Below are positions 10,999 through 12,751 of a stretch of 64,000 nt of DNA, in pieces; position 1 is the first letter of the stretch; each line of letters starts with the position of its first letter. The notes below the pieces were generated by a model, which saw nothing but the letters and a program-made list of their open reading frames with translations, was not told the origin of the DNA and did not search any database. Location of the stretch: NCBI RefSeq assembly GCF_003334315.1, contig NZ_QOWR01000010.1, one strand, 5' to 3'. Source of the DNA: Escherichia coli. Lineage in GTDB: Bacteria > Pseudomonadota > Gammaproteobacteria > Enterobacterales > Enterobacteriaceae. A program made the translations under genes and the position numbers.

Positions 10999-11757
10999 AT
11001 GAGCCTGACCCTCACGCTCACCGGCACCGGCGGCGCACAGGGCGTTCCGGCATGGGGCTGCGAGTGTGCGGCCTGCGCCAGAGCGCGGCGCTCACCGCAG
11101 TATCGCCGCCAACCGTGCAGCGGCGTAGTGAAGTTTAACGAGGCGATCACCCTGATCGACGCCGGGCTGCACGATCTCGCCGATCGCTGGTCGCCCGGAT
11201 CGTTCCAGCAGTTTTTGCTGACGCATTATCATATGGATCACGTCCAGGGGCTGTTTCCGCTGCGCTGGGGCGTTGGCGATCCGATCCCGGTTTACGGCCC
11301 GCCGGATGACCAGGGCTGCGACGATCTGTTTAAACATCCGGGCCTGCTTGATTTCAGCCACACGGTGGAACCGTTTGTGGTGTTTGATTTGCAGGGGTTA
11401 CAGGTCACGCCCCTGCCGCTCAACCACTCAAAACTGACCTTCGGTTATCTGCTGGAAACGGCACACAGCCGGGTGGCGTGGCTGTCTGACACCGCAGGCT
11501 TGCCAGAAAAAACGCTGAAATTTTTACGCAATAATCAGCCGCAGGTAATGGTGATGGATTGCAGTCACCCGCCGCGCGCGGATGCACCGCGTAATCACTG
11601 TGATTTAAATACCGTGCTTGCGCTGAATCAGGTTATCCGCTCGCCACGGGTGATTCTGACCCATATCAGCCACCAGTTTGATGCGTGGCTGATGGAAAAC
11701 GCACTACCGTCAGGGTTTGAGGTGGGGTTTGATGGGATGGAGATTGGGGTGGCGTGA
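10999..11757 (+). CDS. phnP: Metallo-beta-lactamase-fold phosphodiesterase PhnP
   Basis: 252 aa with the HxHxDH motif ([11 protein letters not shown]). Last gene of the operon. Confidence 0.9.
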
Positions 11758-11759
11758 TG

Positions 11760-11895
11760 AGAGGGAATGTGCGCGCTGGCCCCCTCACCCTAACCCTCTC
11801 CCCAGAGGGGCGAGGGGACCGATTGTGCTCGATATTGAATATTGCGCTCGTTTTCTCCCTCTCCCCATTGGGGTGAGGGGCGATGCCTGCTCCAT
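11760..11895. repeat. Pair of GC-rich imperfect palindromes flanking an AT tract
   Basis: ccctcaccctaaccctctccccagaggggcgagggga and ctccctctccccattggggtgaggggcg lie between the convergent phnP and yjdP genes. I did not confirm a repeat-family assignment. Confidence 0.5.
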
Positions 11896-11903
11896 ACCCA
11901 ACC

Positions 11904-12233
11904 TCATCGCCCATACTCATCTTCCATTCTCCGCTCTTCATCCTCCAGTTGCCGACGCTCCTGATCAAGCTGGCGCTGGCGATCGTCCAGCTGCCTGCGG
12001 CGATCTTCAAACTGGCGGCGGCGGTCGTCATATTGTCTGCGCCGATCGTCGCTCACTTCACGCTGCCAGCCGTCGTCGCGCGAATCTTCATAGTCTCGCC
12101 CACGGTCAGGGTTATAAGCGTCATTAATCGCCTGCTGAATATTGCCAATGGTGTCGTCGATAATATCGGCCTGGGCCGGAACGGTGGACAGCGTGAGCAG
12201 GGTGAATAAAAGAAATAGCGGAAAGCGTTTCAT
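11904..12233 (-). CDS. yjdP: Small secreted protein with Arg/Asp/Glu/Gln-rich periodic repeats
   Basis: 109 aa with signal peptide MKRFPLFLLFTLLTLSTVPAQA, then DDRRRQYDDRRRQFEDRRRQLDDRQRQLDQERRQLEDEERR. Confidence 0.8.
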   Translation of the reverse strand: MKRFPLFLLFTLLTLSTVPAQADIIDDTIGNIQQAINDAYNPDRGRDYEDSRDDGWQREVSDDRRRQYDDRRRQFEDRRRQLDDRQRQLDQERRQLEDEERRMEDEYGR

Positions 12234-12301
12234 TAGCCAACCTCAAAAAGAAACTCTATCCACATTAATCATTACTCATCCATGCAAGTAGTGGATGAAT
12301 C

Positions 12302-12751
12302 TCAATTTCTCCGCTGCTCTATTGCCGTAATCGCCTCCACGCGTTGTTGATGACGACCGCCTTCGTACTGTGCGCCCAGCCACGCATCCACAATCATTTT
12401 TGCCAGTTCGAGGCCAACCACTCGTGAACCAAAAGCCAGCACGTTGGTGTCGTTATGCTGCCGCGAAAGTTGCGCGGAATAAGGTTCGCTACAGACGACC
12501 GCGCGAATTCCGGCAAACTTGTTCGCCGCTATCGAAATACCGACGCCAGTACCACAAATCAAAATCCCGCCATCAACCTCTCCGCCAGCAACAGCCAGTG
12601 CGACTTGACTGGCGTAATGCGGATAATCAGTACGCTCTGACGACCAGGTTCCTTTATCAATCACTTCAACGCCACGCTCAACTAAATGTGCCACTATTTC
12701 ATGTTTTAAAATGAAACCGACATGATCACAGCCAAATGCAATCTTTTTCAT
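12302..12751 (-). CDS. rpiB: Ribose-5-phosphate isomerase B / allose-6-phosphate isomerase
   Basis: 149 aa MKKIAFGCDHVGFILKHEIVAHLVERGVEV..., RpiB/LacAB family. Confidence 0.95.
   Translation of the reverse strand: MKKIAFGCDHVGFILKHEIVAHLVERGVEVIDKGTWSSERTDYPHYASQVALAVAGGEVDGGILICGTGVGISIAANKFAGIRAVVCSEPYSAQLSRQHNDTNVLAFGSRVVGLELAKMIVDAWLGAQYEGGRHQQRVEAITAIEQRRN

Follow-up and report, generated by a model that had tools for sequence, protein, structure and literature searches.

yjdP of Escherichia coli: a conserved RcsB-type box upstream of a predicted exported heptad-repeat protein

The yjdP locus and its coding status

The window analysed here is a 64,000-nucleotide stretch of E. coli DNA (assembly GCF_003334315.1, contig NZ_QOWR01000010.1). 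It carries yjdP in convergent orientation to phnP (10999-11757, plus strand), as the initial annotation stated, with rpiB (12302-12751, minus strand) on the upstream side. The features of yjdP and its 3' side are the following.

11904..12233, minus strand: yjdP coding sequence, ATG-started, 109 amino acids plus stop (open reading frame list, RefSeq annotation, NF041443, pN/pS)
12168..12233, minus strand: predicted signal peptide spanning residues 1-22 (MKRFPLFLLFTLLTLSTVPAQA), with D23 as the first residue after the predicted cut (read from sequence)
12111..12167, minus strand: predicted amphipathic helix at the start of the mature protein, residues 23-41 DIIDDTIGNIQQAINDAYN (residue spacing, hydrophobic moment, conservation)
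12051..12110, minus strand: acidic variable linker, residues 42-61 (AlphaFold2 coil at residues 41-53; pN/pS 0.22)
11907..12050, minus strand: heptad-repeat region, residues 62-109 (DDRRRQY DDRRRQF EDRRRQL DDRQRQL DQERRQL EDEERRM EDEYGR)
11781..11880, no strand: palindromic GC-rich repeat in the gap between yjdP and phnP (a 24-nt unit in two copies, plus an inverted pair of 13 nt)

Both yjdP and its 7-residue repeat have been catalogued before, as membership in NF041443, the precomputed PF28054 assignment and the RefSeq name indicate. RefSeq gives the product name "DDRRRQL repeat protein YjdP" to the gene in thousands of E. coli genomes. Against the NCBIfam equivalog NF041443 (DDRRRQL_YjdP), whose cutoff is 90, the protein reaches 147.9 bits, and residues 1-103 align with profile positions 1-101 of 101. 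A database protein of 100% identity, like every homologue, carries a precomputed match to Pfam family PF28054 (YjdP). A 621-nt region is up to 100% identical to E. coli chromosomes in which the gene is annotated as yjdP and flanked by phnP and rpiB. The identity proposed in the initial annotation is therefore practically certain (NF041443, RefSeq name). YjdP is a full member of NF041443 and shows no difference from it; the family is named and its function unassigned.

Searches beyond the named family returned little. A Pfam-A copy that lacks PF28054 gave only chance matches (E at least 0.05), and no homologue of known function was found for YjdP by Pfam, HMMER, PDB profile or Foldseek searches. 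Other NCBIfam matches (FlbB collar, RNase Y and others) fall far under their cutoffs and mirror coiled-coil composition. An Rfam scan of 11600-12400 found no RNA family, and PADLOC reported nothing meaningful on yjdP. A literature search on yjdP and its DDRRRQL repeat found incidental mentions only, with no function attached.

We calculated pN/pS by pooling comparisons of the K-12 gene with 13 gap-free orthologues from Escherichia, Citrobacter and Trabulsiella, for which synonymous sites are saturated. The value for the whole yjdP frame is 0.16, against 1.38 for the antisense frame. An antisense open reading frame at 11883-12209 (plus strand) was ruled out as coding because of the latter value.

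Distribution and repeat number

Of 5426 complete E. coli genomes, 5405 carry yjdP. When 1.84 billion representative proteins were searched exhaustively with HMMER, only 27 clusters came up at E below 1e-10, and a scan of one genome per species gave 86 loci, every one of them in Enterobacteriaceae. The genera include Escherichia, Citrobacter, Enterobacter, Klebsiella (K. oxytoca), Raoultella, Kosakonia, Leclercia, Lelliottia and Kluyvera, and further Buttiauxella, Atlantibacter, Cedecea, Trabulsiella, Yokenella, Pluralibacter, Phytobacter, Pseudocitrobacter and others. A single architecture is found in the 86 loci, namely a signal peptide ending in A-x-A before D, a helix, a linker rich in D, S, R, G and Y, and the heptads, which in orthologues read ...RQY DDRRRQL EDRRRQL DERQRQL DQERRQL EDEERRL EDDY. 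The repeat is thus kept across at least 20 genera, and the initial annotation does not fall on a lack of conservation.

Protein clusters contain alleles of 109 amino acids, of 102 amino acids (one heptad fewer) and, in E. albertii, of 123 amino acids (two extra heptads). The 102-amino-acid alleles lack a heptad at several different positions, which traces them to independent deletions. Changes by whole heptads are what is expected for 21-nt repeats. The repeat-number polymorphism that the initial annotation looked for across strains exists and is rare: the commonest five-heptad junction occurs at full length in 173 of the 5426 complete E. coli genomes (about 3%, short by one heptad), and the six-heptad K-12 stretch occurs at 95% identity or more in 5225 (about 96%). 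Six hydrophobic heptad positions are found in most other genera too. With the repeat number nearly fixed, at six in most genera, its length appears to be under selection.

Signal peptide, N-terminal helix and linker

By inspection, the N terminus has the features of a Sec/signal peptidase I substrate, as the initial annotation held: an MKR n-region, the hydrophobic core FPLFLLFTLLTLSTVP, and AQA followed by D. The A-x-A motif occupies positions -3/-1 of the predicted cleavage site, and YjdP has no Cys and hence no lipobox Cys. In the orthologue alignment A22 is invariant and D23 nearly so, which conserves the A-x-A site before D, and the signal peptide as a whole is the least constrained region of yjdP (pN/pS 0.49). 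A search with an allele whose signal peptide contains a 9-nt repeat gave no match, probably owing to low-complexity filtering. From these features we infer that YjdP is exported by the Sec pathway. The mature protein would have a mass of about 11 kDa, a net charge of -8, 55% charged residues and a GRAVY of -2.28. Hydrophilins combine Gly above 6% with high hydrophilicity; YjdP has the hydrophilicity, and its Gly content (4 of 87 residues, 4.6%) lies below that level.

Residues 23-41 form the predicted amphipathic helix. Ile and Ala stand at mature positions 3, 7, 10, 14 and 17, which is a 3-4-3-4 pattern with true a/d spacing, and the hydrophobic moment is 0.52. This segment has a pN/pS of 0.11 and is nearly identical across genera, with the near-invariant consensus AD(I/V)(I/V)DDAIGNIQQAINDAY. 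AlphaFold2 gives residues 23-41 as helical with low confidence. Since the segment is conserved with a/d spacing, it stands first among the candidates for a module of interaction or oligomerisation, and the conservation pattern makes it the likely interaction site of YjdP. The linker that follows varies between genera in length and sequence and consists of mini-repeats rich in D, S, R, G and Y. Among the parts of YjdP, only this 20-residue acidic linker behaves as a variable, disordered segment.

The repeat unit is a heptad

The initial annotation described charge-rich repeats, which is right on both the translation and the heptad analysis, and the repeat string that it quoted, DDRRRQYDDRRRQFEDRRRQLDDRQRQLDQERRQLEDEERR, is present in the translation at residues 62-102. 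It also placed a DNA period of about 30 nt around 11940-12060. This period is wrong; the true one is 21 nt, or 7 amino acids. Tandem Repeats Finder assigns 11978-12050 a period of 21 nt, with 3.5 copies and 75% matches. When codon shuffles serve as the background, the DNA autocorrelation of the repeat region is highest at lags 21 (z=6.8) and 42 (z=5.7), and at lag 30 it lies under expectation (z=-1.7). Shifted by 7 residues, the protein is 63% identical to itself. The repeat is far more regular than chance would give, and its unit is the heptad.

Across 70 distinct orthologues, position a is L, Y, F, M or I in about 100% of heptads, b is D or E in 93%, c is D or E in 84%, d is R or D/E, e is R, Q or E, f is R in 94% and g is Q or R in 99%. 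The d position is never hydrophobic in these orthologues. The consensus of the unit is L-D-D/E-R-R/Q-R-Q, and YjdP has about six of them. Each heptad has a single hydrophobic residue, and so there is no canonical a/d core.

The charges are ordered. The acidic b and c residues of the same heptad and of the next are 3-4 residues away from Arg at f. The 48 residues of the K-12 repeat contain 36 attractive and 2 repulsive i+3/i+4 charge pairs, against 21.5±3.4 attractive and 20.1±3.4 repulsive pairs in 5000 shuffles, of which 0.02% reach the observed attractive count. The heptads have a pN/pS of 0.06 and are the most constrained part of yjdP, which is the opposite of what a disordered tail conserved in composition only would show.

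From an alignment of 16 sequences, AlphaFold2 predicts residues 54-108 as one continuous helix, with a block-mean pLDDT of 89-97 over residues 61-100. AlphaFold2 readily gives helices for charged repeats, and Asp favours the helix less than does Glu, which is typical of single alpha-helices. A linked-dimer AlphaFold2 model, in which two mature copies were joined by a Gly/Ser linker, has a pTM of 0.43, a helix pLDDT of 74-87 and an N-terminal helix below 40; it stands in for a true multimer prediction and shows packing without confidence. A PDB sequence-profile search with YjdP gave weak coiled-coil matches only (M protein and GCN4 fusions, E at least 0.03), and Foldseek of the monomer model against the PDB gave no match. 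We consider it likely, on the model and the charge pattern, that the heptads form a rigid salt-bridged helical rod.

Charged single alpha-helices (CSAH or ER/K helices), which occur for example in myosin VI and X and in caldesmon, are built of Glu and Lys in i+3/i+4 pairs. YjdP works most like this class, with which it shares a charge periodicity of about 7 residues, dense i+3/i+4 pairs and a long predicted helix without tertiary contacts. It fails the class on its hydrophobic seam, since it carries a conserved hydrophobic residue and a Gln in each heptad; it also differs in using Asp and Arg, in being bacterial and predicted to be exported, and in having no sequence relationship. As a coiled coil, YjdP has the heptad periodicity and lacks the hydrophobic residues at both a and d. 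As modelled, YjdP is a charged-single-helix-like rod with a leucine seam, neither a disordered polyelectrolyte nor a canonical a/d coiled coil.

A conserved RcsB-type box upstream of yjdP

Three elements lie between the yjdP start codon and the end of rpiB.

12291..12304, minus strand: RcsB-box-like element TGAGATTCATCCAC, matching TN(G/A)GAN4TC(T/C)N and overlapping the rpiB stop codon
12262..12267, minus strand: putative -10 hexamer TAATGT (TAnnnT), located by script
12241..12244, minus strand: Shine-Dalgarno-like GAGG, 7 nt before the ATG, located by script (GAGG or GAGA at the same place in orthologues)

We compared the 130 nt 5' of 82 orthologues, which come from at least 20 genera and have differing upstream genes. 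The conserved block ATTTGAGATTCCTCCGCTAC is found in all 82 upstream regions and begins 70-80 nt before the ATG. Every one of the 82 loci also has the box core TGAGA-N4-TCC (TNRGA-N4-TCY), about 72 nt ahead of the ATG. A TAnnnT hexamer follows the box by exactly 23 nt in 74 loci and by 24 nt in 5 more, and the 23-nt spacing would place the box at about -49 to -36. This conserved RcsB-type box with its TAnnnT upstream of yjdP is new here.

The box recognised by the RcsB homodimer, TN(G/A)GAN4TC(T/C)NA, was defined structurally and by EMSA, and that of ytfK lies at -50 to -36 (PMC7913699). The yjdP element has both half-site cores intact and C in place of the final A. The last base is C instead of A in 80 of the 82 loci, and the conserved block runs on past the box (CGCTAC). 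The K-12 yjdP box is identical to the osmC box TGAGATTTATCCTA (PMC7913699) at 11 of 14 positions. Compared with the RcsB-activated promoters of osmC, ytfK, yciG and osmB (PMC7913699), yjdP shares the 14-nt pseudo-palindromic box and its placement and differs in the last base, and RcsB is a candidate regulator of the gene on this likeness. The relaxed box pattern has only 11 occurrences on both strands of the 64-kb window. A promoter and terminator consensus scan found no sigma-70 consensus promoter for yjdP, which fits an activator-dependent promoter.

Published expression data bear on this element. After 30 min with a LolCDE inhibitor the yjdP mRNA had risen 9.5- and 10.6-fold (in normalised expression units, the supplementary tables give a change from 10.6 to 100-112), alongside osmB, bdm, wca/wza, rcsA, ivy, mliC, yjbEFGH and ymgDG (PMC5105897). 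The gene is thus expressed and inducible, so the initial annotation does not fall on a lack of expression either. The RcsB box fits this induction of about 10-fold. The authors assign the response to the inhibitor jointly to Rcs, Cpx and sigma-S (PMC5105897), and because Cpx and sigma-S genes are among those that respond, Rcs control does not follow from the induction by itself; the Rcs dependence of yjdP is our reading of the promoter. On the conserved box, yjdP probably belongs to the Rcs envelope-damage response, and direct control by RcsB seems to us somewhat more probable than indirect control or none. In a separate study, overproduction of CsiR lowered yjdP 3.5-fold and a ChIP peak lay inside the gene (PMC5217608), which hints at additional regulation.

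Proposed role of YjdP

These features suggest a possible route from envelope damage to YjdP. The Rcs phosphorelay senses damage to the outer membrane, lipoproteins or peptidoglycan and would raise yjdP transcription from the gene's own promoter, in which the RcsB box (about -49 to -36) would take the place of a -35 element and be followed by a weak TAnnnT -10. YjdP would be exported through the Sec pathway and its 22-residue signal peptide removed, leaving a highly conserved amphipathic helix of 18 residues, a variable acidic linker and about six heptads. The heptads would build one continuous helix of about 55 residues and about 8 nm, in which Arg at f would bridge the acidic b and c residues of its own and the next heptad and the single hydrophobic residue of each heptad would form a narrow seam between Arg and Gln. 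The N-terminal helix may dock a partner or other YjdP copies, and the rod may serve as a spacer, a scaffold or a protective binder. The least certain step is that YjdP acts as a periplasmic effector of the Rcs envelope-stress response.

Taken as a whole, the reading of YjdP as an Rcs-inducible exported protein with a salt-bridged rod and a protective or scaffolding part has in our estimate a probability of roughly 0.6. The functional role taken by itself, protection or scaffolding during envelope damage, is tentative. Still more doubtful is the strongest version, in which RcsB would activate yjdP directly and its product would be a periplasmic effector of a structural kind new for bacteria, an exported salt-bridge-locked single helix of about 8 nm with a leucine seam. 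Its N-terminal helix would then dock onto a conserved envelope partner, and the rod would serve as a rigid spacer or a charge-zipper scaffold while the envelope is damaged.

Two envelope systems invite comparison with YjdP. Braun's lipoprotein Lpp carries a lipobox Cys, and its hydrophobic a/d core makes a trimer of heptad helices of about 55 residues (about 8 nm). Like Lpp, YjdP is, as predicted, a small, abundant-type enterobacterial envelope protein of the periplasm with a signal peptide and a heptad helix of about 55 residues; unlike Lpp, it has no Cys and one hydrophobic position per heptad, and there is no homology. Spy, CpxP and ZraP are small exported all-helical proteins, as YjdP is predicted to be, and spy and cpxP were induced in the same LolCDE-inhibitor experiment. 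YjdP has no Pfam or profile similarity to them: a Pfam-A scan gave no hit, the YjdP sequence contains no LTXXQ motif, and its promoter element is RcsB-like, not Cpx- or Bae-like.

The same heptads could instead be the seam of a homo-oligomeric coiled coil, in which Leu, Tyr, Phe or Met at every seventh position would zip two or three parallel chains into an Lpp-like rod with R(g)-D(e') bridges. Strict heptads with a conserved hydrophobic position and flanking Gln speak for this, the weak PDB profile matches are all coiled coils (E about 0.03), and the true a/d Ile/Ala stripe of the N-terminal helix would add a short bundle. If Leu is placed at d, g becomes Arg and e becomes Asp, which, read from the sequence, would favour parallel pairing. 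However, Arg, Asp or Glu and never a hydrophobic residue fills the second core position, the linked-dimer model lowers confidence (pLDDT 74-87 vs 89-97; pTM 0.43), and the intrahelical charge pairing is already saturated. We regard the coiled coil as an unlikely alternative to the single salt-bridged rod. The initial annotation had left the choice between a disordered and a coiled polyelectrolyte. Here "coiled" is nearer the truth, and a disordered periplasmic polyelectrolyte or polyampholyte, acting by bulk charge through ion buffering or the binding of polycations or polyanions, appears improbable. The high charge (55% of mature residues) and the GRAVY of -2.28 would suit it, as would the variable linker predicted as coil and the tendency of Asp-rich sequences to disfavour helix. 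Against it, the helix is predicted at very high confidence (pLDDT 89-97), the charge order is non-random with salt-bridge patterning, the Leu, Gln and Arg positions of the highly conserved heptads (pN/pS 0.06) are invariant across genera, and the repeat number is almost fixed.

The position beside phnP raises a link with phosphonate or phosphate metabolism, with YjdP as an accessory of the phn C-P lyase operon, such as a periplasmic, Arg-rich protein that binds phosphonate or phosphate, or with its expression governed by read-through from the convergent phn genes. In 73 of the 86 loci the gene next to yjdP on the downstream side is phnP, in convergent orientation, and the upstream neighbour varies: rpiB stands there in only 12, and a hybrid sensor kinase like that upstream of O157:H7 yjdP in 44. 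An overlap of 4 nt between the 3' ends of the two genes yjdP and phnP occurs in some loci. The convergent orientation, however, means that there is no co-transcription, and the promoter element resembles that of RcsB, not a Pho box. yjdP is also kept where the phn operon is missing or a remnant (loci L005, L007, L012 and L021), and we therefore read the adjacency as an inherited position, not as function; it reflects shared ancestry of the chromosomal region in one bacterial family. A phn link is very improbable.

The preferred reading of YjdP, a salt-bridged rod under Rcs control, concerns an E. coli gene of no assigned function that is near-universal in the species and rises about 10-fold when lipoprotein trafficking is blocked. 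The conserved RcsB-type promoter predicts its regulator, and the heptad analysis predicts a rigid helix, not a disordered tail. If this is true, a structurally unusual member would join the Rcs envelope-damage response, which is relevant to antibiotic tolerance.

GC-rich repeat between yjdP and phnP

The GC-rich palindromic repeat that the initial annotation noted beside yjdP is present between yjdP and phnP. Its 24-nt copies lie at 11794-11817 and 11857-11880; 11781-11793 and 11868-11880 are its inverted arms. The repeat between yjdP and phnP has been listed as a hairpin/G-quadruplex repeat (PMC5100583). Other E. coli lineages lack the repeat and have a gap of 27 nt between yjdP and phnP, which marks it as an accessory insertion and not as part of yjdP.

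Repeat variation in the yjdP coding sequence

The signal peptide of YjdP carries a second repeat polymorphism, which is independent of the heptads and lies at window 12180-12206 on the minus strand. The repeat unit is 9 nt long, TTCACGCTG, and codes for F-T-L. In some E. coli strains it has grown to 5.6 perfect copies, and expansion of the unit lengthens the hydrophobic core and gives YjdP proteins of 118 aa and 112 aa. Expanded forms were present in 5 of 60 genomes taken as an evenly spaced sample. The acidic linker has short repeats of its own, DDDRYDD and DDGRY, whose copy number differs among species, and this variation accounts for most differences in YjdP length between genera.

Repeat features in yjdP loci from other genomes
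L008 328-377 and L009 301-639: expanded 9-nt signal-peptide repeat
L060, L080 and L075 (Raoultella, Enterobacter sp.): short repeats of the linker

Two cases of disruption were encountered. An IS1 element interrupts yjdP in E. coli strain FLI21 (NZ_CP139808.1, 2127062-2128458; match H1/H90), and in Leclercia adecarboxylata NCTC13032 (L071) the frame ends after 48 codons. Both are occasional losses of what is otherwise a core gene.

A hydrophobic ORF of 108 aa (window 11883-12209, plus strand) lies antisense to nearly the whole of yjdP. We rejected it as a gene and put it down to the GAN/CGN codons that yjdP uses, as pN/pS is 1.38 in the antisense frame versus 0.16 in the yjdP frame.

The boundaries of yjdP

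The GC-rich palindromic repeat in the gap between yjdP and phnP (window 11781-11880) is an accessory insertion. The two stop codons are only 27 nt apart in other E. coli lineages (L008, L009, L011), and O157:H7 (L010) has a single copy of the repeat between the genes. This repeat has been catalogued as a hairpin/G-quadruplex repeat (PMC5100583), and it is the reason why the 621-nt region around yjdP gave 3-6 extra matches per genome when searched against E. coli chromosomes. Some genera show a 4-nt overlap between the two genes at their stop-codon ends, which leaves no space for a terminator, so the convergent transcripts must overlap.

At the other end, the junction between the als/rpiB region of K-12 and the OI-167 island of O157:H7, where the hybrid kinase LmvK lies upstream (PMC10128022), falls inside the first codons of yjdP. 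The N-terminus reads MKRHSTLF in O157, as against MKRFPLFL. Although the upstream sequence of the O157 allele differs, the putative RcsB-like box is kept, directly after the kinase stop codon. The kinase-upstream arrangement may be the older one, since a kinase of the LmvK family precedes yjdP in 44 of 86 loci across genera.

Junctions at the two ends of yjdP
L002 4178-4181 and L004 4166-4169: 4-nt 3' overlap of yjdP and phnP
L010 1-300 (E. coli O157:H7) and window 12220-12330: K-12/O157:H7 junction

In K-12-type strains, a 7-bp inverted repeat, TCATCCA ... TGGATGA (window 12276-12298, minus strand), lies immediately past the rpiB stop codon and shares sequence with the RcsB-like box, in the 3' half of that box. 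The repeat may serve as the stem of an rpiB terminator and, if formed in DNA or RNA, could couple rpiB read-through to yjdP. Another inverted repeat, GCCAG...CTGGC, is conserved in the predicted yjdP 5' UTR of 42 of 82 orthologues and is missing from K-12. It lies about 25 nt before the ATG (L014, L016, L031 and other loci) and surrounds the Shine-Dalgarno sequence GAGA, where it could act as a hairpin for translational control.
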